A stretch of DNA of 64,000 bases from Candidatus Omnitrophota bacterium (GTDB lineage Bacteria; Omnitrophota; Gorgyraeia; Duberdicusellales; 4484-171). The notes under the pieces are model-generated. The model had not been told where the DNA came from. It did no database searches and worked only from the letters and a program-made list of their open reading frames with translations. Shown piece by piece: positions 24,001 through 48,000 of the stretch. Every line of letters begins with the position of its first letter. Position 1 is the stretch's first letter. Position numbers and translations under genes: made by a program. The stretch covers positions 96,001 through 160,000 of the forward strand of contig JAIPGM010000001.1 of the NCBI GenBank assembly GCA_021735655.1. Reading direction: 5' to 3'.

Positions 24001-27000
24001 AATTCCTTCATTGCGTGTTCCTTATGATAGTAGTTTTCCGGATGCCTTGTCAGCCTTTGGAGCAAAACTGAAAGCTCCGGTGATGATGCTTGACCATTCA
24101 GCTTGTCATTTTAGCCGGGCACAGCAGCCACTTTTAGGTATGATGTATGACGAACAATATTTGAGATCTAATATCGCTATTAATTGGTTAAATAACCAAA
24201 GAGATCTTTCAGAAGTTACTGATTTGCTTTTAGAAGATACAGTTTTAATAGCGGTAAATGCAAATACATTGCTTAATGGCTCTTACGATCCAAAACATGC
24301 GTCGTTTTTAGATGATTGTGATGGAATCCTCGATCGTAGCCCCAAGGAAACAGTAAGCATCGCCGGTCAAGATACTCCGATTGGAGATGCTTTCTTCAGG
24401 GTTTATGAAGCACGCACTGATAAAGCGATAGCTAGTTATAATGCTGATGCTCAGGCTAAACCTTTAGATAACGGAAAGATAAGTCCAGCCGAACAACGCC
24501 TAGTCAAAGATACACTTTTAATTTCCTATCGAGAAGAAACAACCATTCCGGAAGGTTTCCTTAAAGCGGAAGCTGATTCAAAAAGGTTTGAGGCTTATTT
24601 AGATAAGCAAGTTAGACATATTTTATGGGAAATGAGTACAAATATAATTTTACATGCAGCCGGTAATGGCTCAGTAACTGTTAATCTAGTTACTTTAGAT
24701 GGTCAGTCGGCCTTAGAAATTATTTCTGAGAGTGATGCTTCGGAATTCTCATTAAGTAACTTTTTTGTTAGTTATGATGATTTAGTTAATTTTGCCGCTA
24801 ACCTTAGTAGTAAACATGTGGGATTATTACAGATGATGCAATATGCTGATCGTTTCCGATTTACTCATCGAGATGGCATTTTAACTATTGAAATCGTAAA
24901 GTGGCAAGATCAGACACAACCAAAGGAAATTGCTATTGATTTAGCAGTTGATCAGGCTTCAGTTGAGACAGCCTTAGCTAAAGTTAGGACTGCTCCTAAT
25001 AGTAATCGTCAGCGTTTAGAAATACTTTCTCAAGATAAGGGAGAAATTGGTGCAGTAGCTCAAATTTTTATTCAGAGCATTAGTGCGCCTTTAGATAATG
25101 GAAAGAAACTTGACCCTGAGACCGAACTTAGAAGAATCGCTCAAGAGTTAGATGATTTAGGCTTGGGCCAAGCTGATGTCAGTGACAGTATTGATAGAGT
25201 AAGGGTTGCTTTAGGGCAAGGTTGGTATATACCGGAAAATAGGCCGCATATTGAAATTCTAGGCGATGAGCAGGGGAGGCTTTTACGTGCCTTAGATGAA
25301 ACTCATCTGCATCAAGAGCTGCCGGTAGTCGGAGCCGTAGATACAATAGTTGCAAAGTTGTGTGGTTTTTGTTTTCGTTCGGCTGACGTAGTAGTTTTAT
25401 CGCCCAGAGGAAGGAGAGGTTTCTTTATTCGTCGGGCAATTAAACCATATGAGGGTTATCTTACTTTGGTTGGCGGCGGGGTCCAGAGCGGTAGTTATGA
25501 AACAACCGCAAGAATGGAGATAAGAGAAGAGTTGATTTTAAGCAGATTACCAACTAATCCAATACAGATTATTAGTTATTATATTGCCGTAAAGCACATA
25601 TCTTATCTTAAAGGTGCTTTCTTATTATATATTTTAACTGATGATGAATTAGGCCAAGCTAGGGAATCCAGTCGCCGGGTTAATTCAGCTAAGGTAAATA
25701 AGAGCCGAGGAGAATTTATTGCTTGGTTAGCTCAACAGCGCGATCAGGAAGATGGTACTGGCGAGGCTTTTGGAATTTATGAGATTGATCTTGAAACAGT
25801 ATTTGATCGTCATCTACCGAATCCTGAAGTAGCTGGCGAAATTGGCCTAAGAATTCCTGAAACTTACGTTGGTGGTGAAGTTGAAGAAGAGTTTGCCGCC
25901 TATACCCCGGATATATTACAGTTATTTATGCAAGATCCAGCAAGGATAGCCAGAGCTAAAGAGGAATCCTTGAAACTCATCCGAGGACCTTTAGATAATG
26001 GAAAAACCCAGCAAGAAAGGAAACGTATTTTAGCTAGAGCTCGGTCAATCAGAAATACCAACCACGATATTGGTAATCATCTAAATGGTTTGCTAGGCTG
26101 TTTGAAAGAATCCAAAGAAATTGAAGAAGCTTATGCGATTTTTGGAAGATTTTCCGCAGACATTGCTGGTTTAAGAAAGTATCGCGAAGGTGGCGAGGCT
26201 GTTACCGATCAAGTTCTTGATGAAATAGCTCAGGCTTGTGATCATTGTGAAGCATTATTGGAAGAGTTACGTGATAAACTTCTTGAATTTGAATTTATCC
26301 GGACTATGGGTATTGACGATTTGGGTGAATGTTTTAGTCATATGGATCTAGAAATAAGAGGGTGGTTAGTCCAGGCAACCAAAGATGCCTATGATGTAGT
26401 TTTAATGTTGTTACATGACGAGATAGCCATTTTTAGTGCAGTTGAGGCAATAACTTTTATAACTCGAAGAGAGGCTAGCGAAGAAGAACTTGAGGTTCCC
26501 GAGATAAGGGTCAATCCTGAAGGTAGTCGAGTTATAGTATCGATAAACAGTCGTTACTTTTTAGGAATTTTTATGAATATCATCAGGAATTCTTGCACAG
26601 TTTGCAAGGGAATGTCTGGTCCGTTTGCTTCGATTGAAATTGATGAATCAGGAGAAGAATTTAAAGTTGTGGTTCGCGATAACGGACCGGGCATGAATGA
26701 TGCTCAGGTGCATCAATACAATCTTCAAGCGGTCGGTGATCTAACGGCTGTTACCGGAGTAATTTCTTCAAAGCCAGCCAAGGTACATGCTGAATCAAGT
26801 GGCTACGGCCGAGGCCTAAAAGAAGTTATTGCTGATATTGTTTTGCTTGGTGGGCGTACTTTTGTTGAGCGGTTATCAGCCGGAGGCATGCAAACCGTAG
26901 TAATTTTACCGAAACGACAAATAAAGAAACCTTTAGATAATGGCAAAAAATCTTTAAAATCTCGCCTAGCTGAAGCCGATACAGTAATTATTCCTACGCT

Positions 27001-30000
27001 GGTTGGTTTAACTGAGGGTCGAATTACTATGATAGTAGGTGATAATTTTGTGTCTTCTTACCAAACAGTTTTAGAGTTTTTAAATAGTGAAAAAACTAAC
27101 ATAACCGCTCTAAAGACAATATCAGGAGTTTTAAGTGAATTTTTCTTCGACGGTCATCCTAAGGCGGTAATGGTAGGTGAAGCTGATCTAGAGGCGGTGG
27201 GTATAGTTTTACCTGAGAGTGGAATAATTGATCCATCCAAAGATAATGTAGACATAGATGATTTAAGACAAAAGATCCTTGAGCTGCGTGATGTCATTGC
27301 CGGGTTTCCTTTAAGTCAAGTTGAAGAGTTTGAACAACATAAGTTTGATACCTTGGCTGACAATAAAAAACAAAAAATAGACGAAGATTTAACCGTATAT
27401 GCTAATACTCATATCTTTGACCTTAGATTAAGGGCAAAAAATGAAAGTGAAGTTGTGGTAAGAACTTTTAAGAATTCTCCGGTTGTTTCAGATCAAGTAG
27501 AGATTTTGGGAGTTGGCCCGGAAACTATCCAAACATGGTCAAGAATAATAGAAGCTTCAGAATTAATTGCTCTTTTTGGCCAGTTCCCTCAAGAATTAAC
27601 TCCAGCCTTAGAGGATAAAGTTATAGTGAAAGTTGCTGTTCCGCTTGATAACGGCCGGAATAGTTCAGCTGATACAACTAACCAGCTATTAACCCAACTT
27701 GAGCAAATGGCTCGCGGTCAGATTCCTGACGCTCAAGCCAGTAAAATAATTAAACAACTTTTAGTTTTGGGTACCGAGCGTTCGGATGTCCAAAGAGCTT
27801 TATTACTTTACAGTCGCCTGAGAGAGAAGCCACTCGATGGTTTATTTGATAATTATCATATAAATGGTGTGCCGGTAAGATTAGCAAGAGATCAAGAAGT
27901 CGTTTATATGACTAGAACCGGAAAAACTTTTAAACAGGTTTTTGGTGGTAAAAATATTATGGTTGTCGAAGTCCATCCGGATGACGCTATGCTTAATTTT
28001 GGTGATCTTGCCTTTGCTTTAAAAATGTATGGCGATAGTAATACTATTTTTGCTATGGCCATACCTGATCCAGCCGGAGTTTCTGATTATCAAGTAGATT
28101 TTATCAGAGTCCTTTACCTGATTAGTGAGTTTCTTGCGTTCTCAAAATCTGGGGATTTCGTAACCAAAATTGCAGAAAACCCTTTTATGAATACGAGTTC
28201 AAATGTATTAAAGTCTTGGATTCGGAGCGCTGAAGCTAAACTTGGGTCTGATTGCATGGCTCAAGGTGAATATGTAGATTTAGAGATAAACTTACCGATT
28301 GATCAAGCAGCTCGTGATGAATCTGGCCGATTGTTATCATTTGAGACTATATTCCAGGAACCAACTGATGAAGATCAAGAAAAAGTAGATAATTTAGTTA
28401 AGCAGCATTCCGATAGAGATATCTATATAGTTCCATCTCCGTTTTCGAATCATCCGCATCATCGAGCAATAGCCCGGATATTTTTATCAGCTATTTATCA
28501 ATTTAATCCGAATGCCCAGATATTTCTTTGGGATGATGATTTAAGTTTTAGACAGCATCGAATGAGAGCAAACACATTCTATTTCTATAGTCAATTAGAA
28601 CAGGCTCATAAGGAGAAATGGATTGAAAAAATTTATGATTCTCAAATTCTAAGAAGAGGTAAGGGTTTTTATGCCCAGCGAGCCGAACAAATAGCTTTAG
28701 CTGCGGCTGATGCTGGATTTAAAGAGATGATATTTGAGCGTGGCGATGTAGAGGCTTTCCTGGTTATTTTGGCCCATGAGCTTTTTTACGCTGAAAGATT
28801 ATTAAAGGTGAACATTGTTGAACGGCCAGCAGGTAGGCCTCTCGACAACGGTCGTCAATCAGATAAGGTTCAAGAAATAAGCTTTAGTGATAGAGTAGCG
28901 CTCAGACTTTTAAGCTTCTTGCATTTAATTAGAATGCCTACTTGGATTGTTTGGCATCTTACGCCAATTCGTTTTCGGGGTGGAATATTAGTTAGCGGCG
29001 GTGATTGTGCTGGTCTTAACCCAGTTGCCGGATATCTTTCGCGTTATCTTTGGCAAGATGGCCATATGCTAGCCGGGGTTAAAAAAGGCTTAGATGGCTT
29101 GATTAAAGCTGACCCAACTTCTGAGATTGTTCCAATAACTAGGGGAATGGCTAAGATTATGCCTTATGCTCCGAGTTTTGAATTTGCTTCAACCCGCAGG
29201 AATTTAAAAGAGGGAGAAGCTGAGACCGCCGTAGCCTTAGATAATATCCGTAAGAATTTTGGATTTTTAGTAGTTATTGGCGGCAATGATCATCTTTATG
29301 AAGCTAAAAAATTAGGTGAATTATTGGAGAAGGCCGGGTTAAAAGTTATTGTAGTTGGCGTGCCTAAAACAATTGATGCTGACACTTTATACACTAAACC
29401 CTTAGGAATTGAGTCAGCTGCCCAAGCGGTGAACGAATATGTTTATCGGGCAGCAGCTTTACCGGGGTCAGGCGAAGTAGTAATTATTGAAGCTATGGGT
29501 CGGGATTGCGGTTATTTAGCAGCTCGGGCCGGAGATAGAAGAGATGAAGCGATCGCCTTACTTGGTGCCGAGTTAGCCGAAAAAGCCGAAAAAGCCAAGC
29601 CAACTATGGAGACTTATGTTCCCGAGCATCCTAAAACTGTAGCTGAAATCCGCCGCCGGGCTAGAGAAAAAATGGCTAAAGTCGGAGCAATAACTATTAT
29701 TCTTTCTGAAGGTTTTAGAATTAACCAAACAGATGATCCGGACTATGGACCATTGCTAGAGGCTAATCCAGTATTAGCTGAAATCCTTAGAGGGCTTAAG
29801 CCTGACACACAAGGAAATATTGTTATTCCACAAGGTATTGCTGCTGAATTTGTCGCAGCTATTTTAGCCGAATATAATCCGACAATAGAAGTATTAGGTT
29901 TTACACCGCGCGGGGCTATCCCGGTTGATCAGGAAAGAGAGCTTGCTTCCGGTTTTGCCCGTCAAGCTAGAAAAGCTATAGTTGAAAGAATCAGTGGCAG

Positions 30001-33000
30001 GGCTGTTGCCTGTTGTGATGATATTAATCATCCGGCTGATTTAGGCGTTATTGACCTTGTGCCGATAACTCGGGTTTGCGGTAAAGATGCTAAAGGAAGA
30101 TCCATCAGTAAAGATGTAGATCAAATTATGAGTTTAACTGATCAGAAAGCAGCCGGAGTGATAATTTCCGATAATCAAGAAATTATGCCGGAAGAACCAT
30201 CAGCTGAGACTATTCGGAATAAAGATCCGCCGACTACCGTTAGCGCAGTTGCTGCAACTGCAATTTCAGCCTGGGCACATCGTCGGCCTTCAATTTTTGT
30301 TATTCGCGGGCAGGAAGCTGATGAAACAGTTAATCGATTAGCAGATCTTTTAGCTGCATCAACCAATTTAGGGGTTATCTATGTACGTCAAAGAACTGAA
30401 AATTCATATCTTGTTCTTTCGCGAAATACGTCTTTATCCTTAGGGGAGGTTCTTTCTAGCGCTCACCAGATAAAAGCAGCTGTTGGCCATCTCAATGTTG
30501 TTGTTTCACCATATTTTCAAATCAGAAAGAATGATCCAGTCATAGTTCAGTTAAGCCAAGTCAGAGAAAGGCTAACTGCTGAATTATCTGCCTTAGGTGA
30601 AGCTAAGGACAATCAAGCTAAGCGAGAAGGTATAATCAAGGCTCTTGCGCCTTATCGAGAGTTAGCCTTACGTTTAGCTAATGGCGATATTTCTGATTCA
30701 GCCTACTACGAATTTAATCCAGCCTTAAATGATCTTGGTCAGGTAGTTAAATTGATACTTTCCTTAGCTGTTCCTCAGGTCGAGAATCATACAGGGCCAT
30801 TGTCCGGCATGCGGCTGACTTCTTTAGGCCGGGCTTTAGATAGAGAAGAGAGAATCTTAACTTATAAACCGCTTGACAATGGCAAATCAAAAGAAGTTAT
30901 GACAGTTTCACACTTAGCTTATCCGACAAAGGCAGCTCTTATTCTTGAATTTGGTTTTTATCATGAAATAGAGCTTACTGCGGGGTACTTTTGCCTAGAG
31001 AATGAAGGTTTAGAAACAACTGTCGGTTTTAGAAGATGGTCTGAGCAACTAGAAGACTACTTAGAACAACCAAAACGTGGTCAGCAAGGAAATTTAGTCG
31101 CGATAATATTTGATGTTCCAATTGGATGGATTACAAATGGTGAGCGGATAGTATGGCATCAAGATGTAGGTTCGACTTTTTTAAGTTTGTCATCGGAAAC
31201 AAAAGTGGAAGCATTACCGCAGGAATTTTTAGATAGATTGGCCGCCGAAGATGTTGAGTGGTGGGGCAAGCAAGGTTTAGAAATGAATCTGGCCGATTTT
31301 TTTGCTTTGCATTATCGCAGGGGCACCTTAGGCCATGTGCCAGCTGAAAGTCTAAATCTTGAACAAACCATACAGCGAAATGTAGCACATTATGATGAAA
31401 GTTTTCTTGAAACATTAGTTGGCCAAAAGTTAACAGCGATGAGCCAATTGGCACCTCTCGATAATGGCATCAGAAAGTCTGGCCCTCGTTCGCATATCGG
31501 AACTTCAGGGAAAGTGACGAAAGTTCAACCAGTTGCCAAAGTTGGTGATCGTGATGCTGATCCTGAAGAACTAAAGAAAGAAACCAAAACCAAAAAAAGT
31601 GAGCCAAAAGCTATTGATTTTGGTCCAGCGGTAATTGTTGAGCTTTCTCAAGAAGCGCAAAGGTTGTTGGCTGAATCGAAAGATGGCCCAGACAATCCTG
31701 ACGGAAAATCTCAAGCCCCACTTGATAATGGCGTTAATGGTCTTGAGGTGATCAGCCAGGAAGAAGTGTTTTATAAAAATATTCACGAACATTTATCTCA
31801 ACGATCAGTGCCAGCTGATCAGATAGATTTTATTATTAAGGCAATGCGCTTAAATGCGCGCCATAATTTTGTTTCGCAATTAAGTAGACCGGCAACCTAT
31901 AATTCAAATTATCCGATATTTATCGGTAATTGCATGATGTCTCAAGGTACTGGTGTTGCCTATCAAGCCGCGCTGTTAAAACTTGAATATGGACAGTATG
32001 TGCTTGAGGTGGGAACCGGTTCAGGCTGGCAAACCGCCATATTAGCTACTTTAAGCTATGGCGGTAGTGTTTATTCAATCGAACAAGACCTCGAAGTAGC
32101 TAGGGTTGCTCAAAGTAATATTTCGGCGGCGAGGATTAGCAATATTTTCCTTATTCAAGCTGATGCAATGCAACCAATAGATGTATTAGCCGGTAAAAAA
32201 TTTGAACGAATCATTGTTTCCGGGGCATTACCACAAGGAATACCGGTCATATTGTTAGATTATCTCGACTTGTCAGGAATAATGATTGCTCCGATAAATC
32301 ACGGTAACTCTAGTGATAGTTTATGGAGGATTACCAAGGGGTATGACGGAACCATGGCTGCATCTAGAGTAGATAAAAATATGAGATTCCAGCGGATCAA
32401 TGTTGCAAGTAGTACCTCAGTAATTCCAGTTAATCAGGCTAAGAAATTACAAGATTTATCTATTGAGCAAGCTACAGAGCTTGGTGTTCTGTTGGCTGAT
32501 AGGAAAGCTCGAGCTCCGCTTGATAATGGAAAATCTTTATCGAGACGTAGCTTTGGTTTTATGGTGACCGCTTTGGGAGTGGGGTCATTTTTGACTGTTT
32601 GTTCTAAGTCCTCTGATTTGAAACCGGAAGGCAATCTCATTGGGACTGGACTCACAGTAGGATTAACTTTCGCTCCTGGATTAGGAAGAAATATTGGGGC
32701 ATATGAGGAGACAGTATGGACTGATCAGGATGTTGAATTTTTATGCCAAGAAGCGAAATTGATCAGAAAATTATGGAATGTTCCTTTTGTTTTATTCTCT
32801 GTTTATACTCCTCCGATTGCCGGTAGCAATTACGCTCAAAGTTATCGATGGATTAAGCAGATGCATGAAGCTGGAGTTCGTCTTTTGCCACATATCTCAA
32901 ACTATGATGGTCGCTATCTTCCTTCACCAATCGATATTAATGCTTGGGGTATTTCTGGTAGGGAAAAGAACCTATACAAAGATTTTATTAGGGGTTTGTA

Positions 33001-36000
33001 TCATGAGTTTAGCTTACGCAATGAAGAGGGTATTTTTTCTGAAACTATTGTTGGTTGGAATGTTTTTAACGAATATGATTATTTAGCTGTAAATAATCCT
33101 AAATGGTTTGCCAGAACGGGCGAGATTGAGGGATTATTGCAGGGTCTGGATGAAGCTGGGATAGTTGATAATCAAGAAAGAACAAGGGTAATACACGGGC
33201 ATGTTATCGATAATATCCTTTTAGCTACAGAGGAAACAACTCGAGGCATTATTGGAGTCTATCAAGACCTAGGTCTTGATCCTAAGCCGATATATACAGT
33301 TTGGGCTGGATTGCCGACAACTGAACAGGTTGCTAAAGTTCCTTCTTTGACTGGTTGGTCATTTAATCGTTATGATAAACCAGGCCTGTTAGAATCTTTA
33401 GAAAATGCTGCTCAGATAGTTGGTGGTAAAGAAATAAATATCCATGAGATCGGGGAGAGTTCTCATGATGGAGAGGATGTTCAAGCGATAGAGCTGGCTA
33501 GAACATTAAATGAGATAGTTGGGGCAAGAGCAAAATTTCCGAATTTGCGTCACTTTATGTTTATGAGCGCTAACGATAATCACTGGAAACCGGAGCTAGA
33601 AAGCACAACAGCAGGATACCGAAGATTTGATAGACAAGGAACTCCTTTCTATGGTCAACATTGGGGATTGTTTGCGACAATATTTGATGATGATGGCAAT
33701 GCCATAGCAGTTAGGCCGAAGAAAGCTGTCGGTGCTTTAAGTGTAGAAATTAGTAAGCTGGCTAATGCAAATAAAGCTGGTCAGCCACTTGATAATGGCC
33801 GGGATAGCTCAGCATTAGGCTCAATTACTACTCGGATTAATGTTTCAGCCAATAACCATTCAGTACAATTACAGGGACATCAACATTTAGTGGTCATTGC
33901 TCCTTTCGAAGATTTAAATCAACAGGACAGAGCTACTTTAGATGAACTTCTTGAAACCAAACTACCAATTGGTGACTATGTATTTATCGGCGAAGGAACT
34001 TTTGGTCTGTTAATGGTTGCTAAGATGGCCCTGTTAAAAAATAGCGATATCCGCGATAGTCAGCTAGCCGAACATTTAGGAAATGTCATTGAACTGGCTA
34101 GCTTGATGAATCAAGGGCTTAGCTCAACCGGCTTAAACTTAGGTGAGCCTATAGCCGAGCATCTTAATCGAGTGGTTGAATATTTTCCTTTAACTAATAA
34201 TCAGCGGCTAATAGCCCTTATTCGTAATTTAGTGATAATGCATTATGGGGAACCAGTAATGTTTTTTACTCAGTTTGCTCAAGATCCCGGTCGCTTCCGA
34301 GGAGTTTATCTATCAACCCTTGCAACCAGTCCGGAGATCATCAACCAGATGGAAATACAATATCAGAGGCAAGTACCGCTTAATAACGGAAAAGATACCG
34401 CAAAATATGTTTCAACTAAAGCAGTAATCGTACTTGGTGTATCTGGTTCAGGAAAAACTACCTTTATTGATAATTTGCTTGATGATCGGCACGACCGTTT
34501 TATTTTCCCGCGACTTACTACTACCCGAAAACCACGCAGTGGAGAAACTGCTGATCGTTATCGAGTTTTTGTTAGCCAAGAATTATTTGATTCAAAAGAT
34601 CGGGCCGATCAAATGTTAATGGTAAGAAGGGGCCGTCATGGCGGCTATGCTTATGGGTTAGATAGAGGTAATTTGGATAGGTGCTGCGCCACCGGTAAAG
34701 CATTACTTTTTGATACAACTTCAATCGCTGGGGTAGAGCGAATAAGAGAAATTTTTCCTCAGGCTGAGGTAATCACGGTTATACCTAAATCATTCGATAG
34801 GCTCAAAATTTTAAGCGATGAGCAAATTAAACGTATTCTTGAGTCGCGAATGAAGACAAGACGCATGAGTAGGGTTGATACTGAAAAACGCCTTCAGGAG
34901 GCTGTAAATGAGCTTAAAAGATTTCCTGAGCTTAAACCAGAAGTGGTTGTTGTGAATGATTCAATTGATGACTTAGATGAAAATATGACTAGATTTAATC
35001 AGGCAGCCGTGGAGTTAGTTTCTAAAAATCAGCCGTTAGATAACGGAGTCGATGAAGCGCATTGGCGACACAATCTTGACTTAAAAGGTTTTACTGAATT
35101 TTCTGATGAATATATTGATTTTCTTAAGAGAGTTGATGATCGAGAGGCTAATGATGCCTTTTGGCAACCGATCGAAAGATTTAATCAAAGATTAAAAAGC
35201 AATAAAGCTTTAGCTAGAAAACTTTTAGATTTATCGCAGATAATGCTTGATCAGGAAGTTTCAGCTGCTGAGGCTTTAATTGAGGCCTTAGCGCAAGTTG
35301 ATAATCGTAATGATTCAGAAGTTGCCTTTGAACAGGTAATTGAACTAGCGGCAGTTTTCTTAAGAAGAAATTTTGACCCGAGGGCTTCGCTCATGCATGG
35401 AGTAGTGGCTATAGCCAGTGCGGCTAAATCAGCAACTGATTTAGAAAGTTGTTTGGCTCTTGCCTTGAACATAGCCGAAGATGCTTCTTGGGATTATCCA
35501 CAAATAAATTTTGCAATCCAGTTTGATATTCCTTTGATTGCTTTAGAAACTAATGATCCAGAGGTTTTAGCTACTCAGTTAGAGTTTTTAGTCAGCCGTC
35601 AAGGATATTCGCAAGCTCGAGCTTATGCCCGGACCCATTGGATGTATAATTTTAGAAGAAAAAATAGTTTTCGCACTACTGATTGTTACGAAGTTGGCCC
35701 AGATGGTCCAAATTGGAAAAAAGGTTATGTTCGCAGAGGATTAGTAGAATTAATTGCTTATAAAAGATTTATTAAAGCTATAGCTAGAGCACAAGAACAA
35801 GGATTAGGCATTGAATCTCGTATAGCTACTAAAGAAAAACAAGTTTATCGTGGTCTGGTTAGGGCTGAAACTCACAGTGATTCAGGCACCTATTATACTT
35901 GGGAGCAAGATTTAATAGTAGCCGTTTGCCCAGTATTTTTAAAAGAGACAGTAGTTTCTAAAACTGATCTGACCGGTCAATTTTTCCCCGGCTTATTAAG

Positions 36001-39000
36001 AGTCGAAAATGATCAAGATATTAGCTTATTAGATTGGCATGTTCAGCGTGTTGTTGGTCAATTCCAAAGTTGGGTTACACATAGGCATAGAAATTTTGAT
36101 CAATGGCCACGTTGTCGACGCGATAATTTATTGCTTGAAGCTTACTTACAGCACCAGATTTATGATACCTATAAAAAATTTGCCAGTATTTGGGCTCGGG
36201 CTTATCAAGAAGCATTCATTCCGCAAAAATATCCTAAGGGGAGTCAAAATGATAATCCAGTATATTTAGCTGCAGTTGAAGCAATTGCTTGGTTAGATCA
36301 GGTTGGTGGAGTTGCCAACGAGCAACGTTTGGCCAAGCTGGATGAGCTAGACGATAAACATCAATTAGGGAGATATCGAATATTACTCCAGAAAGCTTTG
36401 CTTGAACCTCAGACTACAGGAGTCTCGCAAGTAACTCAAAAAGTTATCGGAGAGGAAGGTATTTCTGGCAAACCTTTAGATAACGGGAGAGTAAATAAAG
36501 AAGAATTAGCGGTTACAGCAGTTAAAAGAGGGAACACCTCACCGTGGCTGGCGGGTCCCCTCTCTGCTGTAGCCCCTATATATATAGGTAAACAATCGCT
36601 ACCTTTGGATAATGGTAAGTCAATTCAAGAACAATTCATTGAAGATGTAATTGTTTTTTGGAAAGTTTGGGATAAACAATATCCTAGAGATATTGAATCT
36701 AGCATTTGCGTACTCGAAGGCGTAAAAGCTTTGAAAGCCAAAGGTTATATAGTCTATTCTGGCTCAGAGCATCAATTGAATATGGCAATTGCTGGTTTAT
36801 GGAGAAATGTTTCTGAAGATGATAAGTTTGCAATAAAAGAAGCTGTACGTTTATTGGCTGAAAATGTTAGACAACATGCTGACGATAGCGGAAGATTGAT
36901 AGCCTTTTTTGATCGTGAAGATGATGTGCTTTATTTAGCTATGGTTGATGTTGGTCCGGGATTTTTCCGTGATGATGAAGGAAGACCGGTTATTCGGAGA
37001 AAAGATGATCGGTTTGAACAACGTCCGGATTCTACCGGCAGAGGGGTTGGTTTAAAGTGGGTTTCAGATCAGGTAGATGATTTACAAATCCATACGGGTG
37101 GGCATGTTAGCCGACAGCCTAAACCAACAATTGAGTCCGATTCAAGGATAGAAGATCTTAAAGGAACTTTTGTTTTTACGAAAATAAATTTAGCCAGTCA
37201 AGCCAGGGAGCCTTTAGATAATGGTTATGGAGTTTATCAAGGCAGGAGACTATATCTAGCTGCTGATCCGGTTCTAAGTGGAGTTAAAAGTATTCGGCGC
37301 GTGAATTTATCAGGTCTAACCACCAAGAGACAAAAACACACTTTATTCACTAGACGAAAAATTCTCGATTTAGTGAGTGTCCATGCTTTAGCGGCGGCCC
37401 ATGGTTATTCTTGGTTAAATGATATAAATAATAGTTATGCTAAAAACCAAGCTGATGGTGAGGTTACTTATTGGTTTGAGGTTTATTATGCTATGCTTTC
37501 CTGGTTAAAGGGAGAAATTTATAATGCTGAAGGAACTCGCGATGAGGCACCTAGTCTTTATGTCGGCCAACACGTTGGGGCTGGATTTCAAAGTGATTTT
37601 CCAGAAAGAGAAGAAGCGAATGTAGCTATCGGAATTGATCCTTTAGAGGTAACTAACGGAGTAGTTTCAGCAAAATTTCTTGGTAGTACTGCTCCGGCAG
37701 TATACGCACCACGTGGTGGGATTATGAAAATAACCGATTTAGCTTATCTTTGGGCTTTATCGGTTGGTCCGGCCGCCGGAAATTGCGATTTAAATTTAAA
37801 CTACAGCGTTAGAAAAAATATGACTAATCTAGCAGCTAGTTTAGGTAAGAAAACAAGTCAGCTCAGAGGGGTAATGTTATTCAGAGAAAGGCATTCACGG
37901 GTTCCTTTGTTGCAATTGGTTGAAAGCGGAATGCAGATAGATGAAGGTGATTCAGAACTTAGAGAATTCTTAAATGAGGCCAAACGAATCGAGGATAAAG
38001 AAAAACAATGTCAGAAGCCAAGCCTGCAAGATTTTGATAGTTTGAAGCAGACTTACAAAGCTTTTGATAGCAAGGTTAAGGCAACTGGGGTTTATCAAAG
38101 CGGGAACCTTACCTTTATTGCTGACGGGAACCTTATGCCAGCTTTAGTGGCTTTAAAGAGAGGCTCGGCAGATTTTATTTTTGACTCAGGGGGAACTTCC
38201 GAAGGAATTATGGCTGCGGCTAATGTAAGGGCAATTGGTGGAAAAATGAGCGCCCGGATTGTGCCTTATCAGGCAATGGCTGAAGGAAAGCTTCAGGCAA
38301 ACTTAGTTAAAGATAAAGATAAATTTTTAGAAAATGAACTAGCTGAGCTAGCGAGATATGGTTTTTATCCTAAAACTTCAAGAAGAAAATTGCAGCGAGG
38401 GCAATATCGTCTTAATCATGTTTTTGATGCTACAGATTTAGTCAGTGCTGAAGAAGCAGTTTTCTTGGCAGCTCACATTAAAGATAGTCCTTGGGACAGC
38501 AGATTGAAGGGAGTAAGATTCGACCGTTCGAGTGGTTATTTAGTCGTTGATGTTGTGGTTAGTACGACTGCGGGTGAAGTTTCAGTTTATCGGGTAACTA
38601 TGAATACAAAAGTTTCAGACGTAGAATCAAAATACGATGCGTTATATAAAGTGCGAGGATTGTCATTTAGTAGAATTTTAGACATATTTGATGGTCGTAG
38701 TCAAGCTCAGCAATTAGCTACTGATTACTATGATTTAGCTAAGGCTCTTGGAATGTTGGGTTTGTTTGAAGATGCTATTGATACATTTAGGTTTTCCGAA
38801 AATTTAAGAAGCAGTACTTATTCTTTTAGATGTCGCGCTGCTCAATCTCATTTCTTGGGGATGAAAATGATTCTAGAAGGTCAAGCAGGCCAAAACGCTA
38901 ACGAAATTGCTGCTAAACATTTTGAAGATTCCTTAGAGAGGAGTCGAAAGAGCCGAGACCCACAGCTAAGAACTAGAGAAAGGCTTATTGACCTTTATAA

Positions 39001-42000
39001 ATTTCTTGGTGAAACTGCAGTGAAGAAGGATGAACATCAGGATGCTGAACGTTGGTTTACTTTAGCTTTAAGAAGAGACCCAACCAACAAAGAATTGCTA
39101 GATAAGCTTAATCAAATACAAGTTTTAACTAACCAGCCGCTTGATAACGGCAAAGCCTCCCTAGAAGACCAAGCAGCTAGACAGCCTCTTGATAATGGCA
39201 AGCCTACGATTTTTTCAATTTCACCACAACTTCAGGGCACTCCTTTAGGTGAACGGTTGACGCAGCTTAATACTCTTTATCAGGAAAAAGGTACTAACGA
39301 ACAAGGCGCTAGGGCTGTAGTTGAGGCAGTTTTAGTTGAGCCGGAAATAAAACTTGAAGTCTCCCAAAGAATAAGACAGGCTGATCGCTTGGAAGAGACT
39401 CAAGGTTTTTCAGTATCAAAAACTTGGGCTGATCGTCTAAAGGATGAAGTTTTGAGCCGTTCAGTTGAAAAGTTAGTTGACCGGGAGATTTTCATATTTC
39501 AGATGGAGTATGAGTTGTCGGTGGGATTCTTGCAGGCTTTTTATGATTATCAGATTAGTTTAATGCGACAATATCGTAAGGCTGAGCTTGAAGCTGCTGA
39601 TAGCTTGGATCAGCAAACCGCTCTCGAAGCTGAAATAAGAAGAGATGCTACTCACAATACTTCCCAATTTGCTAAATTGCTTATGGCTGGTGGACTAGGA
39701 AGCTTTAAGCCGGATTTAGTCCGCGGCTGGTATCGAATTATTAAAGAATACCGTAGTTTAGCGGCTGCCCGAAATCAAATTCATGTTATGGGCATATTGT
39801 ACTCAAGTGCAATCAAGGGACAGCAGGAAAATCGAGGCTTGATGCAACTTAAGGGTCCAGCTCAGATAGCTGATAGTGATATTATCGAAACAGTTATCAT
39901 CAATCGAGCCAACCCTCAAAATGGTATGCTTGAATTAGTCGATACTTTTGAAGGGCCTGTTCCTGAATTTGGTATTGGTCAGTTAACCATTGAGTTATAT
40001 CGTAACCCACATTCTGAATTACAGGAATATTGGCTATATTGTCCGTCTCAGGTGGTTCAGGATAAATACGACGGGACTAGTGAAGTTGTTGAATGGTTGG
40101 AAAACGGAAGAGTCGTAGTTAGGCAAGCTCAAGTTTTCAATGAAGCTTATCCGGGAGAAACCTCTGATTATTGGCGGGCAGTTCAATCTTTAGTTTATCG
40201 CCGAGTTTGTTTAGAATTCATTCGTCGCGGTCAAGAGAATCGAAGGAATCATGAAAAGAAGCGAAAACCGCGCTGGGGAACTTATTTTGTCGGTAAAAAA
40301 TTACTTTTTTCAACTAGCGAAGTTAACACTACTTTAGTCATTCCTCAAGTTATCGAAGCTCAATACGGCCAGGTAGAAGATAGTCGGGGAAAGAGGGCAA
40401 AAAGAGTTATTCGCGGTGATAATTTTGCCAGATATTCTGGTTTTCGCGACGTAGTGGTTCATCATTATAACCATACGATTGTTCCAGCCGGCATGCCTTA
40501 CTATCCGCAGGATGCTGAAAATGACTTTTTTACTGAATTAAGCATTGCTGAACGATTCCGTCCGGCTATCCATGACGGAAAAATTGATTTAGTAAAAATA
40601 ACTGGTCAGGTCAGCGATGTTATCACTGGCTGCTCAACCATGCATACCCGGATTTTACGTGAGGAAATATTTGCTGAGTTTGCCGAAAAGGTAGTTGAGG
40701 ATCCTTTATTTGGTAATAGTGAAGGTTCAGATCTTGAGCGTTGGCAGGGAAGAAGAATCCAGACCACGGTTGCCCATTATCGAGATCAATTAGGGGTAAC
40801 CGGAAGCCATCAAGAGTTTTTCGCGGCTTTAGGCAAAGTTTCCGACGGACAACCAAGGGTCAAGCGAGACTTCATTGCAAGTATTTTACGTGCTAAACAT
40901 AAACAAAAAGAATTATTTGTCCGAAAGCTATTTGATGGTACTTTTGGCGATCTGGGAGTAACGGAAGCGGAGTTTAAAGCTGCCGGAAAATCTATCTTAG
41001 ATATGCCATTTTTTACTTTTGTCCGCCGTTTTGTTGATTATAAATGCCCCAATCTTATCATTGATATGCTGTTTAATAAAGAATATCGCGATAGAATTGT
41101 TGCCGCTAACGCCGTAATTTTAATCGGTGGTCGCCGCTTTAGTTGGTTTTTTGAAAAACAGCGTGAACGGTTACGTCAATTAATAAGACAGGATCCGAGA
41201 ATGAGATTTCATGTTTTATTTATTGAGGAACATAATATACATACCTCTCCGATAATGCAGCAGGGCACTGATTTTGGCGGAATGCTTTCCTGGGAAGGAA
41301 AAGAAGCCGGCCCAACTAGTTTTGGTAATGCTCAACAAAATGCTTCGCCGACTATTGGAACCTTAGATGGGGTTATCCCAGAACGTTTGAGGCCGATTGT
41401 GCGTGGCCAACAGGGAGAAATCATTAGTGGAACCGGATATGTTGTTGAATACTCACAGGAGCGTAAAGGTGGAGTAAGAATTCCGGATATTAATTCGTTA
41501 GTGCTTCAAATTGAACAAGCCAGCAGAGACTACGCCGATAAATTAGTTTATGGTCAAATTGCCGTAAATGCTTTAGCTATGGGCATGACCCAAGGCGATA
41601 TTGACAATCAGGCCAAGGGCTTAATTGCAGTTTGGGGGAACTTATTAGAGCAAGCAAGGCCAGCGGCTGTACCTTTAGATAATGGAAAAGTATCTAAGGC
41701 ATCCATAGGTAATAGAAATTTTGGCCAAAAATTATTTAATTTTTTAAAATGGTTTATTGCTCCAAAAAGTCCTAAAATGCTTCAGTTTCTTACTGAGGCA
41801 ATTGTAAATACTACTGGTTTGTCAGCCGATATTACTCAAAAGTTAGAAGAAATAAGAAGGCAGATCGAACAAGCTGAAGATAAGAAAGAGCCTTTAGACA
41901 ATGGTCGGGATAAATTAAGCCCTAGAATATCAAAATTGCTTGCACAAGGAACTGAAGATCCTCAAGTGCAATATCAATTACTAGAGATTATTCGCGCCCA

Positions 42001-45000
42001 ACAGCAACCAGTAGTCGGGATGATGGATAATTACCATTTAAATGGTCAAAGGGTTCGCTTTGCGCCTGAGGAAAGTTTAGCTGTAGTCGCAGAATTTGAT
42101 CGTGGTAGTTTTAGAAGAGCATTCAGTCCAAAATTAAGGACGATGATTATTGAAACTCATCCCGATGATTTAATCATTCATGCCGGTGCTACGGCAAATA
42201 TGTTTGTTAGTGAAACTAGGGGAATGATAACTGAGCTTATTCCGCAATATCCGGGATACCGCAATAATATGCCAATTTTTGTTACAGCAGTTCCTGATCC
42301 AGCCGGAGTAACTGATAATTTTGCTTTTAATTTTTTCCAAGGCAAATTAACTTCTTTGGAGGCGGCAAAAAGAGAAGTCCGGGCCCAGGAAGCGATCTTA
42401 AATGCTGGTTTTATTGGTTGGAATCAGACTGGCAATGCCAGTGAAAGGCACATTAATCTTGATTTAAGATTAAGCTTGATTAAAGCAGTCAGAAGGCCGG
42501 ATGGAAGCCTTGATTCTTATCGTAGTGTTTTTCAGAGATTAACTAAAAGTGAACTTGAAAAAATTGACGCTGTTGTAAGGGAGAATGCGGCTGATCAATA
42601 TTTTATGGTCCATCCGTTTAGCAATCATCCACACCATCGGGTTGTAACTCATGCCTTTTTAGAAGCGATTTACACTCACAATCCGCAAGCAACTATATAT
42701 TTTTGGGCTAATCAAGAAGAACACCAACAGTTAATGACCCAGGCTAATGTATTTTTTGTTTTTAGTGAGGGCATGGAGAATTGGAAAGGGTTAATTATTT
42801 TTAACGGAAACCATTCGCAAAATGAACGCCGAGGCGGAAATGGTGAATATTATTGTGATGCTGCTCGGAGTATGGATTTAGCTACCTGGGAAAATTTACA
42901 AGAAAGACTTGCTCGAGAGGAAACTAGTTCGGTAAATTTAAATAGTTTACCGCTTTGGCGACCGCATGCAGAAAGATTTGTAAAGGTAAGGATTGAGCCA
43001 GTCGGTCAAGATGTCCTGAGCACTCCTTTGGATAATGGGAAATCAACTAAGCAGCCAGAGAAAGAGGTAGTTTCTGATTCCCAAAACGATTTTTCTTTAG
43101 AGCAACTGAAAGCGCTTACGGTTGGTAGCCCTAATCTTTCTTTCGGGGTAGGTATTTTAGCTCGTCATCAAGAGGTGGATTTAATTATTCAGGCTTTTGG
43201 TAAGAGAATAATCAAGCGCGGTGCTTTTTACCAGACAAGACCTTGGGAGGAAACCTTAAAAACCGATTTAGCTTCACCTAACGCAGCTAAAGTAGATTTA
43301 GCCATTAAAACATTAGCCAGTTTAGGCGGAGATTACGCGGCCAGAGCTAGGCGCTTTGAACAAGATATAACCGTAATTGAAGTCGACCTGCCAACCCATT
43401 TTCTTTTATACGGCCAGGATTTAACCGGCGAGATTTATTATCAGCTTACTCATATTGGTCTTGAGCGAAGAATAATTTATCTTCCAAGTAAATATCTAGA
43501 GGATGCAAGTGGACCAGAGTTTGTAGCTACTATTTTTAACCACGATCAAAGCGAGCTTGAGGAGTTCATTCCTTTTTTATTAAGTGGCCGAAATATCACC
43601 GATCAAATGGTTGAGCAGGCTCATCAACGGGCCATGCAAGACGATCCTTTTGGTGTTTACCCCCAGGTCGATGACTTGCTTTCTGATATGCAGGCTTATG
43701 ATGATATGTTTACCCAATCGATGGTTGTAGCTCAAATTGCTGCCGTAGATTCAGCTGTTACTACAAAGAATCGTCAGCTATTAGATGCTTTAGCCTCCCG
43801 CACGCCAAGTGGGCCAGAAGCCTTAAAGGCTAAAGGCCTTTTATTTGAACTAGCCAACCTTGAAACTAAAATTGGTTGTTTGTATGAGGCATTAGGCCAA
43901 AGAAAAAGTGCAATCAGTCATTATCGTAGCGGCGTAGCCGCATTGTCCAGAGTCTCAAAAACAACTATAATTGATACTGGTTTGTTGCCGCTTCAATTAC
44001 AGGTAAGAATGCTTTACCTCTATGCTCGCGAAGGCATGTTTGGCCGTCTTCGAAGTGGTTTTCGTAAATTTTCCCAAGTTAAAATTGGTCGCCAAGCTGA
44101 GGCTTCTGAGGTTGAGCTTTTTGAATGGTATATGGATAGCAATTTTGTGCCGGTAAGAAGAGCTGTGGTTGGAATCCTGCGGCATCACATTACTTGTGGG
44201 CATAACAACTACCCTAAAGATCAGGTAATGACTACTGTTAGATATATTGAACAGTGTCAATATATTCCTTCGGATATAACCCCACGTCTTAAACCAGCTT
44301 ATCTTCAAATTAGAAACACTCCAAGCTTAGCTAATGTTTTTTCAGCCGCCGAATATTTTAGGAGACATAAAGTTCCCGGCTGGGATAAGGTTTTAGCTAA
44401 AACCTTAGGCGGTAATGGCCAGATGGAGGAAGAATATTTGGGTGAATTTGTTGAAGCTAAAGCAGCTGAAGATCAAGTTTGTTATTCGCGGGTAATCGAG
44501 CTTAGCCTTGAGGGCCACGGTCCAGAGATAGATTTTGTACTTGAAGTTGATCGGGCAAAGTATCATCGTAACAATCAAGGGCAATATGGTAATTTAGATG
44601 AGGGAATTTATCTTGGTGAATCCAAGACATTTAATCGACAATTTAACTTAGATTTGGTTACCGAACATACAATTGATGATAAACAAAGCAAATATCGTTT
44701 AGTGGCCGCAAGGTTAAATAAGCTTCCCGATCCAGTTTTTAACGGCCGCATGAAGGGTATTGTTTTTGCTATGGGGGGAAGCTCGGTTACGGCAGCGGGA
44801 GTTCTAGAGTTTAGGTTAAGACAAAGAGAAGTGGATGAGGGATTAGAAACTTTGAGCTTAGTTGAATATGTAGCTTACATCCCGGATACTATTGATGCTG
44901 ACGAAGAGATAACTTTAAGTGTTAAGGAGGAAATTTATATTATTAAATGGGTAAGAGAGTTAGTTGAGCGGGGAGTAATTGAAGAAAATGAGGTTACCCG

Positions 45001-48000
45001 CGTTGAGCGTGTATTTATGGAAATAGCTTCAACTAGCAGCCGTTATGTATTACAAAGTATAGTTTGTGCAAAGTTAAGAGAAAAAACCGGGGAAGGTGAT
45101 ACTTCTTCAGCCAAGCGTCAGTCAGAACAAATTTGGCAAGAAATTATAGCTGAGCTAGAGGCTGAAGCTTTTCCAAATCGAAAACCACTTGATAACGGCC
45201 GCGATGGTCAAGCTGATTTAGCTCGTCAACAGTTAGCTGAAAGTTTGAGAGGGCGCTTGACCGGATTGCTAGATTCTGGTCTTAATCCGGAAAATAGCCT
45301 ACTTGTAACTCATGTTGGTCGACCGAATAAGGCTGGCACGCTTAGGGGTTTGGGTTTACGAGTTTACGAGATGGTTATTCAAGGAGTCAATAAACTTTAT
45401 TATGACCGACGGACTGTAAGAACCATCCCTTTATTTTCTAATAGTTTAGATTGTCCTTATCCTGGTGGTTATCATTCCCAGGGTGGAATGCTTACACCGG
45501 AGGCTAGGCAGGATATTGTTAGCCGGGGAGATGTTTTTATTCTAAGCGGAGGTGAGCTTGAAATATGCTTGCAGATGACTTTTAGCGAATTAATCGATGC
45601 TTTAAATCAAGCTGGAAGAACTACGGTGATATTTGTTCCGCTTGAAGCAACTAGTAGATTTATAAATTTAGAGTCGGCAACCGGCTATGCTGATTATTTA
45701 AAAAGCCGAGCGATAAGCTATGAAGAGTATGATTTTACTAAAAACGAGGTAACTCTAGCTCAACCGGCTACGCCACAGGTATTATTAGTTTGGACTAAGA
45801 CCGCTCAGGAAACTCTTTATTGGTTAGATTTCATAGCTAGGCATCAAAGACTTGTTGCTGAGAAACTTATTGAATCTTTGGGCTCAACTGAGGCAAATGT
45901 ACGTAAAGATGCCGCCGCTAGAATAATTACTATTGCTAAATTAATTGGTCACAACCAAGAAGATAATATATTTGGTCGTCATCCTTTAGATTGGCTTTAT
46001 GGTCATGATGACCATCGCCAGACTACGCCGCAAGAACGCAGGCTTTTATCGGAAGTTTCTTGGTTTCCTTCTGATGCTGTTCATCGAGATGAGGAGCAAG
46101 TACTTTTAACCAATCGCCGAAGAGTAAAAAGCAGAGTAACTGAAGTAAGAAAATCTTTAAGAAATAGGATTTTGTTTGACGTTAAGGCAAAATTGGAATT
46201 ATTAAAACAGCGTTTAGCTGATTCTGAAATTCAGGCTGCAGTAGATTTGGTAAGCTTTGGCTTTGATTCAAGTTTACCGGATCAAGGATCACGCAAGATA
46301 GCTGTTCTTAGAAAATTAGAGAGAAATCTCCAAGAGCTAACTACCCAGATAGAAAGGGCTAAAGCTTCTGGTAGTATTGGAGTGATAATTGTGCCTTTAA
46401 TTGATGAGGCTTTAAGTAGTCTACGGCGGCACGTAAATACGATTAGACATTGGTCGGATTATAAAAAAGGAAGCTATGTGCTTAGGCAGTTAGTTGATTG
46501 GATGGTTCGAAAGCATTTTGAGCCGCAGCATGCTCAATATCGGCAGATAAAATCAGCTAAAGTTTTGGGACGAGTCGATAACGGAGATGAAAAATTTTGG
46601 CAACTTCCGATTTGGCCGTTGGCTGATAACGGTGAGGTTGATTTAGGCTTAACTGGCTGGATGCTTACTTCGCGACAACGGGCTCCGCCAGAATATTTTC
46701 AAAGAAGAAAAGTTTCCCTAGCCGAATTAGCTGGTTTAAAACCAATCCAACTTACCTTATTTAATCTTGATGATTTTACTGGTTCTGGGCAACCCTTAGA
46801 TAATGGCCGAGTGCCTCTCGATAATGGTAAACCTTTATTAGAAAATAGAGATAAACCTAAAGAAACAGGCAGCCACCTTAGAGTAATGCTGGGTTTTCTA
46901 AGTCCGATCAGAGATGAAACCAAAATAGATGAACCCTTGAGTATTTCCGTGTTAGCTGGAGTATTAAGAGATGAGTTTAAGGGCACGGTAGACGTTGCCA
47001 CGGTCCACCCTCTTGTTGAAAAGGGAGGCCTTGAAGGGGTAAAGGAAAGGATAAGAAAAGAACAGCCGGACATCTTAGGATTATCTTTGTTTTTTGGTAG
47101 TTTAGATTATTTAAGAGAATTAATGGCTTATATACGTACTTTGCCAGAAGAAGTTAGGCCTTTAGTGATACTTGGCAATGTGTTGGCTAAATATAATTTA
47201 GGATTGATTTTAAAGGAATTTCCAGAAGTTGGAATTTGTACTGGAGAAGGAGAAAATACTATACGAGATTTTGTGCGTTATTACCGGGGGGAGATGGGTC
47301 TTTTGCAGATTACCAATTTTGCCTATATACATCAAGGGGTACCGAGAGTAAATTTACCTCAACAACGCACTGATTTGTCTGATATTGGAATGCCTCAGCG
47401 GGATATTTTTTCTCACGTCATCAGAACCGGCGGGGTCGTATTTTTAGAAACAAGCCGTTCTTGTTCGCATAATTGTGCAATGTGTAGTCGTAAGACTTAT
47501 TTGGAAGGAGCAGAATTTTCTCAAGTAGGTTGGCGTGGACGTCCGCTTGAGGATGTCATAAGAGATATGGCTGATGTAAGTCGTCAAGGAGCCAGATTTG
47601 TTAATTTCGTTGATGAAGATATTTTTGGTGGAGGCCTTGTACGGGTTATGGAGCTTGCCCAGAGAATTATTTTTGCTAAGGCACGAGGCGAGATTCATCC
47701 CGATTTAACCTTTGGCAGTTCAGCTAGCGTGAGATCAATCTATGTCCAACCAGAAGGTGATACTAAAGCTAGGGCTCAGATTGAAGCCGATAACGAGCTG
47801 AGGATAGAGGCACTTACAAGATTAAAACAAGCTGGCTTAGTGGTTTTATTTACAGGTATCGAGTCAGGTTCTCCTACTCAGCTTGCTCGATACGGAAAAG
47901 ATGCCACAGTATTTGAAAATGAAATGGCCTTACGGATAATCGATGAAGCAGGCATACACAATGTTCCTGGTTTTATTATGTTTGATCAAAAGGTCACAAT

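Follow-up and report, generated by a model that had tools for sequence, protein, structure and literature searches.

We analyzed a 64,000-nucleotide window of a Candidatus Omnitrophota genome (GenBank assembly GCA_021735655.1, contig JAIPGM010000001.1, positions 96,001 to 160,000 of the forward strand) and found that it is an internal stretch of one giant gene, continuing past both ends, whose product carries 53 copies of a short peptide, P-L-[D/N]-N-G-[K/R], between protein-sized enzyme modules. On balance we favor, with modest confidence, the explanation that a site-specific endopeptidase or transpeptidase recognizes PLDNG[K/R] and that the open reading frame (ORF) encodes a cellular polyprotein. 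Giant multi-enzyme proteins and the polyprotein principle are already known; the PLDNG[K/R] array is new in its motif and in its scale. All counts of modules and segments and all domain lists below refer to the whole window.

The plus-strand frame starting at nucleotide 2 contained no stop codon in 64,000 bases (21,333 codons), and both of its ends were open. No open stretch of 300 amino acids (aa) or more was present in any other frame of the window. At the GC content of 40%, a stop-free frame of this kind is not due to chance, which identifies the window as an internal piece of one giant gene. GC skew along the coding strand was positive in every 2 kb bin from position 1 to 64000 (0.01 to 0.21).

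The exact pentapeptide PLDNG occurred 50 times in the window translation, against 0.015 occurrences expected from the composition, and three further sites carried the variant PLNNG. Asn and Gly were invariant in all 53 sites, and the residue after exact PLDNG was K or R in 43 of 50, the other seven having Y, V, T, I or H. Each of the five core positions carried 3.3 to 4.6 bits of information and the K/R position 2.5 bits, and the edges of the motif were sharp, with background values (<0.9 bits) directly on both sides. Among the 4-, 5- and 6-mers of the translation only the linker motif was over-represented, every other 5-mer occurring three times or fewer. Asn-Gly dipeptides were observed 114 times in the whole translation, against 60 expected, and 61 times outside the linkers, against 59.7 expected. 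Because the dipeptide was neither depleted nor enriched there, the whole Asn-Gly excess comes from the linker motif. An earlier reading of this DNA (hereafter the original prediction) had described a protein punctuated about 50 times by Asn-Gly, and this description was borne out by the count.

The codons of the motif were mixed. Leu was encoded by both Leu codon families (TTA 16, CTT 15, CTC 10, TTG 8 and CTA 1), and the codons for Pro, Asp, Asn and Gly varied likewise. This synonymous variation indicated that selection acts on the peptide and not on the DNA; the linker is a conserved peptide motif, and a DNA-level repeat or a mobile element was ruled out as its origin. The PLNNGK variants were located at 12563-12577, 34376-34390 and 60872-60886, and the change from Asp to Asn takes one base. 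As one of them exactly bounds the guanylate kinase (Gmk) module, the variant may still be functional as a linker.

About six residues on either side of the motif were strongly hydrophilic (Kyte-Doolittle value about -1.0, against -0.24 +/- 0.17 at random positions). In an AlphaFold2 (AF2) model of the module at 31718-32515 with both of its linkers, the linkers lacked secondary structure, and their predicted local distance difference test score (pLDDT) was about 30 to 50. This modeled disorder is weak evidence, the ends of the construct being short of alignment depth. Two identical double linkers, PLDNGRVPLDNGKP, were located 4 kb apart, each with its two sites separated by 7 aa. If both sites of a double linker were cut, each would release one heptapeptide.

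The linkers lay between modules. From aa 3879 on, the segments delimited by the 53 sites ranged from 7 to 1,200 aa (median 233 aa), similar in size to free-standing proteins, and no PLDNG site was present in the first 3,878 aa, which are rich in transmembrane (TM) stretches. About 20 domains were detected by Pfam or PDB searches; each of them was contained in one segment, and none straddled a linker. A short conserved site was present at each boundary between functional units, and no site fell within a detected domain, so that the Asn-Gly sites of the original prediction proved to be conserved linkers between modules. The Gmk domain, for example, fitted a 219-aa segment with a PLNNG variant as its upstream boundary. 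The DxDGT motif of a HAD hydrolase and the P-loop of Gmk were found about 20 residues downstream of a linker. Paralogous modules (the two phosphofructokinases (PFK), the two OxsB-like modules, and segments 18 and 33) aligned from residue 1 of their segments, indicating that a linker and its module duplicate as one unit. By these features, the modules look like complete proteins.

The recognizable cargo comprised a HAD hydrolase with a methyltransferase, a UDP-sugar pyrophosphorylase, a phosphoenolpyruvate (PEP)-utilizing enzyme, a NUDIX module, two HATPase-like modules, two PFK modules, a PCMT (protein-L-isoaspartate O-methyltransferase) module, guanylate kinase, a glpX-type fructose bisphosphatase (FBPase) with TPR, a phosphorylase-like module, two PIG-L-like modules, three radical S-adenosylmethionine (SAM) modules (two of them OxsB-like with B12), a RidA/FkbO-like module, and a further methyltransferase. 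The PFK and FBPase modules gave weak matches, of about 40 to 60 bits, to enzymes of known structure in their families, and the Gmk module scored far below its NCBIfam equivalog cut-off. These weak matches to their own families, shared by the PCMT module described below, suggest that the cargo modules are diverged paralogues of housekeeping enzymes. The UDP-sugar pyrophosphorylase module was full-length (665 aa); its best PDB matches were 9UML and 9UMK ('MbUSP'), and it had no Pfam or NCBIfam match at E <= 0.1. For three consecutive modules without a Pfam match at 41891-46792 (1,634 aa), a search of 5.8 billion proteins found no homologue. The C-terminal cargo appears mostly orphan or very fast-evolving, unlike the invariant linkers.

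Segments of 7 to 43 aa were also present between linkers. Two such mini-modules, at 11636-11737 and 12563-12685 (34 and 41 aa), were 68% identical and shared the pattern GKQNRQSPPSD...RGRASH[ND]VAV[AT]GPASK; repeated mini-modules of this kind could be small released peptides. The modules at 12686 and 15650 also begin alike, with GKDV[ES]RAEH[VI]LGQ.

In the polyprotein explanation, a single chain would be translated with a membrane-embedded N-terminal part carrying a GT48 glucan synthase; at least 54 protein-sized modules would come after it, every one with a P-L-D-N-G-K/R hexapeptide in front. A dedicated and highly specific endopeptidase or transpeptidase, encoded outside the window (in another part of the ORF or at another place in the genome), would recognize the hexapeptide and split the chain into its separate enzymes, much as viral polyproteins and MARTX toxins are processed. 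The bond cut would most likely be Asn↓Gly or Gly↓Lys/Arg (arrows mark the bond). Cleavage at Asn↓Gly would place P-L-D-N at P4-P1 before a small P1' residue. Clan CD and legumain-type enzymes act on sites laid out in this way, with a P4-P1 tetrapeptide and a small P1'. With the cut at Gly↓Lys/Arg, positions -4 and -1 would be Leu and Gly, a partial likeness to the double-glycine sites that C39 peptidases use, although position -2 of the motif is Asn and position -7 is not hydrophobic. C39 peptidases have been reported in Omnitrophota giants (10.1101/2023.11.21.568195; 10.64898/2026.06.07.730766). Lys/Arg as P1, as for a trypsin- or metacaspase-type enzyme, is unlikely since this is the least conserved position, with a non-basic residue at seven of 50 sites. 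The case for Asp as P1 is weaker because three sites read PLNNG, and one of these three forms a neat boundary of the Gmk module.

Viral polyproteins, MARTX toxins and large clostridial toxins resemble this arrangement in having one chain, many units and a short conserved site between them. In MARTX toxins, a clan CD cysteine protease domain (CPD) sets the effectors free. The present protein differs in its more than 50 units, in its housekeeping-like metabolic cargo and in that no protease was found in the window; PLDNG[K/R] is also unlike the known sites, which are Leu↓Ala/Ser/Gly for CPD and Gln↓Gly for 3C. A closer likeness in the bond itself is found in plants, where legumain (asparaginyl endopeptidase) processes 11S globulin, multi-cyclotide and TIPTOP precursors between their repeated units, where the Asn↓Gly bonds are conserved (PMC7101308, PMC4703859, PMC13388682). 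Those are eukaryotic vacuolar systems, whereas no C13 domain was detected here and P4-P2 (P-L-D) is far more constrained.

The sequences that directly follow some linkers bear on whether the modules are released. [ST]RRxF motifs occurred three times in the whole protein, and two of them were located 8 and 18 aa past a linker, each followed by a hydrophobic stretch. In the segment after the PCMT module, SRRSFGF is followed by a hydrophobic h-region and LTVC↓S, an arrangement that resembles a twin-arginine translocation (Tat) lipoprotein signal. A second twin-arginine-like signal, SRRDFEIRSLLGGLCAFCGG, was seen at about 55229-55290. Four further modules start with a hydrophobic helix. Signal-like and hydrophobic starts make most sense at a free N-terminus and therefore fit released proteins; as support for free N-termini, the Tat-like patterns are at most suggestive.

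Several results weigh against the polyprotein explanation. Its main weakness is the missing peptidase: Pfam searches of each segment at E <= 0.1 and PDB sequence searches covering all 21,333 aa revealed no peptidase domain, so the processing enzyme must lie elsewhere. Exposed Asn-Gly is prone to deamidation, and it would be an odd protease site unless processing is fast or Asn is P1. The Tat-like signals were not recognized by curated models (NCBIfam including TIGR01409, and Pfam), and the low pLDDT of the linkers is expected at construct ends regardless. A profile of 47 linkers searched against 1.84 billion representative proteins gave five matches, all unrelated (FN3 repeats with TPLDNGT, eukaryotic repeat proteins, and a small protein of the type IX secretion system type), and the set yielded no further protein with a PLDNG[KR] array. 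An alignment of the GT48 region against genome and metagenome contigs gave no confirmed related locus. The exact motif seems to be lineage-specific; alternatively, giant proteins may be poorly represented in the representative set.

A full-text literature search for 'PLDNG' returned nothing relevant. When metagenome and viral contigs were scanned with the DNA pattern of the double linker, the single match (Ga0315338_1000043, 3502-3536), on a contig of 57% GC, was judged to be chance; it encodes a small secreted-looking protein with PLDNGLAPLDNGG.

The lack of a protease in the window is also what one would expect if the chain were never cut. PLDNG[K/R] would then be a structural or docking element, such as a type I' Asn-Gly turn, a hinge, or a short linear motif to which a scaffold, a chaperone or an export machine binds, and it would space enzyme modules on a membrane-anchored megadalton 'enzymes-on-a-string' protein. 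Such a role would agree with linkers that are short, hydrophilic and unstructured and with an N-terminal membrane anchor that a relative shares, and published work on giant proteins leaves open whether Archaeovorin-type giants act as single chains (10.1101/2023.11.21.568195). We nevertheless regard an uncleaved chain as rather unlikely. A hinge does not need five invariant residues, yet these are kept in 50 of 53 copies amid modules that have evolved beyond recognition. It is hard to see spacers in double sites 7 aa apart or in segments as short as 7 to 43 aa, and the signal-like and TM sequences right after linkers fit released proteins better.

Separation of the modules could in principle dispense with a protease if PLDNG[K/R] acted like a 2A/StopGo nascent-peptide signal and caused a peptide bond to be skipped on the ribosome. 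Selection on the peptide and not on the DNA would agree with this, as would the absence of a protease from the Pfam results of the window, and the motif loosely resembles the 2A core D-x-E-x-N-P-G↓P. The essential P1' Pro and the NPG tripeptide are, however, absent from the motif, the 15 to 20 upstream residues needed by 2A are not conserved, and 2A-type skipping is not known to work on bacterial ribosomes, which together make such a signal extremely improbable. Internal translation starts at the modules were rejected because no conserved Met follows the motif. Sortase-like LPxTG logic was set aside for lack of a hydrophobic tail after the motif, Lys-Asn isopeptide cross-linking for lack of a supporting fold, and N-glycosylation for lack of a sequon in the motif.

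The original prediction had linked the Asn-Gly sites to one module, which it called a strong PCMT match. The family assignment was confirmed: the module is exactly one inter-motif segment, and it matched PF01135 with an E value of 4.4e-24 and 85.9 bits against a gathering threshold of 20.3 bits, covering profile positions 18-198 of 210. 'Strong' was an overstatement, however, as identity to any PCMT was 38% or less and the score was below the NCBIfam equivalog cut-offs (NF001453, 104.6 vs 188 bits; TIGR00080, 79.8 vs 159; NF010549, 78 vs 282). In the AF2 model, the core had pLDDT >90, and the top 15 Foldseek matches in the PDB were all protein isoaspartyl methyltransferases (PIMTs); against E. 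coli Pcm (3LBF), the target-normalized TM-score was 0.89 with a root-mean-square deviation of 2.5. The SAM-binding residues, whose loss the original prediction had named as refuting it, were kept: the module conserves all nine columns that are invariant in a 43-sequence family alignment, among them motif I (ExGxGxG) and the acidic residue that follows beta-2, a Glu. The corresponding stretches of the module, VLEVGTGSGWQTA and VYSIEQ, are matched in the E. coli sequence by VLEIGTGSGYQTA and VCSVER, respectively. The module still looks able to bind SAM, as judged from this alignment.

The substrate side of the module has changed more. In the isoaspartate (isoAsp)-binding loop before motif I, GQTISQP is replaced by NCMMSQG, in which only Ser-Gln is kept; in motif II, GDGxxG has become ADAMQP with only Asp kept; and FD has become FE at a near-invariant position of the substrate region. 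The isoAsp specificity of the module is uncertain. The homologues nearest to it come from ordinary stand-alone pcm genes (200 to 245 aa), and one of these lies in a housekeeping neighborhood with xerC-like, scpA, scpB and rluB-like genes. Searches with peptides of the module in genome, viral and plasmid contig collections gave no match. Compared with Pcm/PIMT (PF01135, EC 2.1.1.77), the module shares the fold, motif I, the Glu after beta-2, Ser-Gln of the loop and Asp of motif II, and it differs in being embedded in a giant chain, in its low identity and sub-equivalog score, and in its divergent GQTISQP, GDGxxG and FD positions. It looks like a diverged paralogue of a housekeeping protein-repair methyltransferase and, in the polyprotein explanation, would be one cargo module among at least 54.

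Asn-Gly is by established chemistry the most deamidation-prone dipeptide, and here it stands in exposed linkers. The NGR-to-isoDGR switch is a known case of functional deamidation. Programmed succinimide chemistry at Asn-Gly, working as an isoAsp timer or by Asn-cyclization cleavage and serviced by the in-cis PCMT module through repair or aspartimide formation, is coherent as chemistry, and the module does keep the PIMT fold, motif I, the acidic residue after beta-2 and the Ser-Gln of the substrate loop. The only real precedent comes from PIMT homologues in pathways for peptides made on ribosomes and then modified after translation (RiPPs), which install aspartimides in lanthipeptides, lasso peptides, graspetides and imiditides (PMC13001092). 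These are PIMT-family enzymes that perform deliberate succinimide chemistry on a co-encoded substrate; they form distinct families, however, which methylate Asp in a structured peptide and have extra C-terminal domains or motifs (PMC13001092). The PCMT module scored far below the cut-offs of the RiPP-associated families (TIGR04188, 51 vs 380 bits; TIGR04364, 47 vs 320 bits), and a pattern search of the module did not find their C-terminal WxxxGxP motif.

Further evidence makes programmed succinimide chemistry quite improbable. The chemistry of N-G needs only N-G and leaves the invariant P, L, D and K/R unexplained; since P, L and D show the same invariance as N and G, and K/R follows, the motif points to recognition by a specific macromolecule rather than to spontaneous succinimide formation. 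At Asn-Gly, deamidation greatly outcompetes backbone cleavage. Cleavage at the linkers, as proposed in the original prediction, was a sensible idea, but the intein-like Asn chemistry offered for it lacks conserved flanks around Asn. We found no conserved fold of the asparagine peptide lyase, intein or HINT-like kind around the linker Asn; the flanks were at background within one residue and unstructured. Outside the linkers, NG was neither depleted nor enriched, and the substrate loop of the module is divergent. A specific functional coupling of the PCMT module to the Asn-Gly sites was not supported; the module is one of about 20 unrelated recognizable enzyme modules and has no special position or copy number. 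Repair by PIMT yields Asp and not Asn (PMC13001092), and it therefore cannot restore the D-N-G motif. Nothing supports a specific link between the PCMT module and the linkers.

A broader form of the proposal takes D-N-G as a chemical device, in which a succinimide at Asn-Gly, arising spontaneously or driven by methylation, times or triggers the separation or inactivation of the more than 50 modules. The in-cis PIMT-like module would then methylate the neighboring Asp or the resulting isoAsp, as in RiPP aspartimidylation. The idea is very doubtful; if true, it would amount to protein-scale aspartimide chemistry with its own dedicated methyltransferase.

The features discussed here are collected in Table 1.

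Table 1. Features of the 64,000-nucleotide window, in window coordinates.
Feature	Position	Strand	Basis
Single giant ORF, 21,333 codons	2..64000	+	No stop; no rival open stretch of at least 300 aa; positive GC skew
N-terminal region, 3,878 aa, without PLDNG, with about 17 TM-like hydrophobic stretches and the GT48 domain	2..11635	+	Collinear with Omnitrophota metagenome fragment P0062
GT48 1,3-beta-glucan (callose/FKS-like) synthase domain	7202..8695	+	Pfam PF02364, E 1.8e-56; PDB FKS1/GSC2, E 2e-22
Array of 53 P-L-[D/N]-N-G-[K/R] linkers (50 PLDNG, 3 PLNNG), at least 54 segments	11636..62215	+	Motif count
HAD hydrolase + class I methyltransferase module	13538..15649	+	Domain searches
UDP-sugar pyrophosphorylase module	16127..18121	+	PDB 9UML, E 1.7e-71
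PEP-utilizing enzyme module, 1,200 aa	18446..22045	+	Pfam, PDB sequence search
PFK module 1	28838..30868	+	Domain searches
PCMT-like module, segment 22, 266 aa, aa 10573-10838	31718..32515	+	Exactly one inter-motif segment
Linker PLDNGV at start of PCMT module	31718..31735	+	AF2 pLDDT about 50, no secondary structure
PCMT (PF01135) core, module residues 36-219	31823..32374	+	Pfam; AF2 pLDDT >90; Foldseek
SAM-binding motif I, VLEVGTGSGWQTAILA	32000..32047	+	Family alignment
Linker PLDNGK closing PCMT module and opening the next	32516..32533	+	AF2 pLDDT <50
Tat- and lipobox-like N-terminal signal (putative), SLSRRSFGFMVTALGVGSFLTVC, directly after linker	32534..32602	+	Visual pattern only; no TIGR01409 or Pfam match
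Guanylate kinase module, upstream boundary variant PLNNGK	34376..35032	+	Domain searches
FBPase (glpX type) + TPR module	37211..39136	+	Domain searches
Double linker PLDNGRVPLDNGKP	46793..46834	+	Motif count
B12-binding radical SAM (OxsB-like) module	46814..49231	+	Domain searches
Second identical double linker PLDNGRVPLDNGKP	50807..50848	+	Motif count
RidA/FkbO-like module	50828..52243	+	Domain searches
PFK module 2, 25%-identical paralogue of module 1, aligned from segment residue 1	52343..54538	+	Domain searches, paralogue alignment

The closest relative of the GT48 region was MDP3142822.1 (P0062) from a Candidatus Omnitrophota bacterium, a 978-aa partial protein that spans the whole of a 2.9 kb contig of a metagenome-assembled genome (MAG). 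It was collinear with aa 1427-2728 of the window translation at 32-47% identity and was the sole close relative found. The other nearest relatives of the GT48 domain were plant callose synthases (about 28% identity) and fungal FKS1/GSC2. On these alignments, the presence of GT48 in a bacterial giant points to an unusual distribution or to horizontal transfer.

In its domain repertoire, the window protein matches giants of the Omnitrophota 'Archaeovorin' type. Like the published Archaeovorins (10.1101/2023.11.21.568195; 10.64898/2026.06.07.730766), it has a stop-free ORF of tens of kb, a TM-rich anchor, and a cargo that includes glycosyltransferase, methyltransferase, HATPase_c, radical SAM, NUDIX, HAD, PEP-utilizing (pyruvate phosphate dikinase-like), TPR and sugar-metabolism domains, and its nearest homologue comes from an Omnitrophota MAG. 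The ORF is at least 64 kb long with both window ends open, against single ORFs of more than 90 kb in the published set (10.1101/2023.11.21.568195). No C39, S8 or SecA-like domain was present in the 64 kb piece, and the gene runs past both of its ends. Cleavage of Archaeovorins has been suspected from the occurrence of C39 and S8 domains, with no information on the cleavage points (10.1101/2023.11.21.568195), and the available portions of the two reports do not mention an inter-module motif, a linker or PCMT.

Known Omnitrophota giant proteins reach 85,000 to 147,000 aa. For a protein of this kind, the hexapeptide at every module boundary provides the first explicit candidate processing sites, and the linker array makes it directly testable whether such a giant acts as one chain or as many proteins. 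The motif predicts peptide termini in metaproteomes, cut points in the sequence for structure prediction, and the specificity of the processing enzyme. If the polyprotein explanation is true, this would be a cellular polyprotein on a scale unseen outside viruses, and more than 50 enzymes of sugar-nucleotide, glycolytic and nucleotide metabolism would be supplied by it in stoichiometric amounts, possibly for predation.

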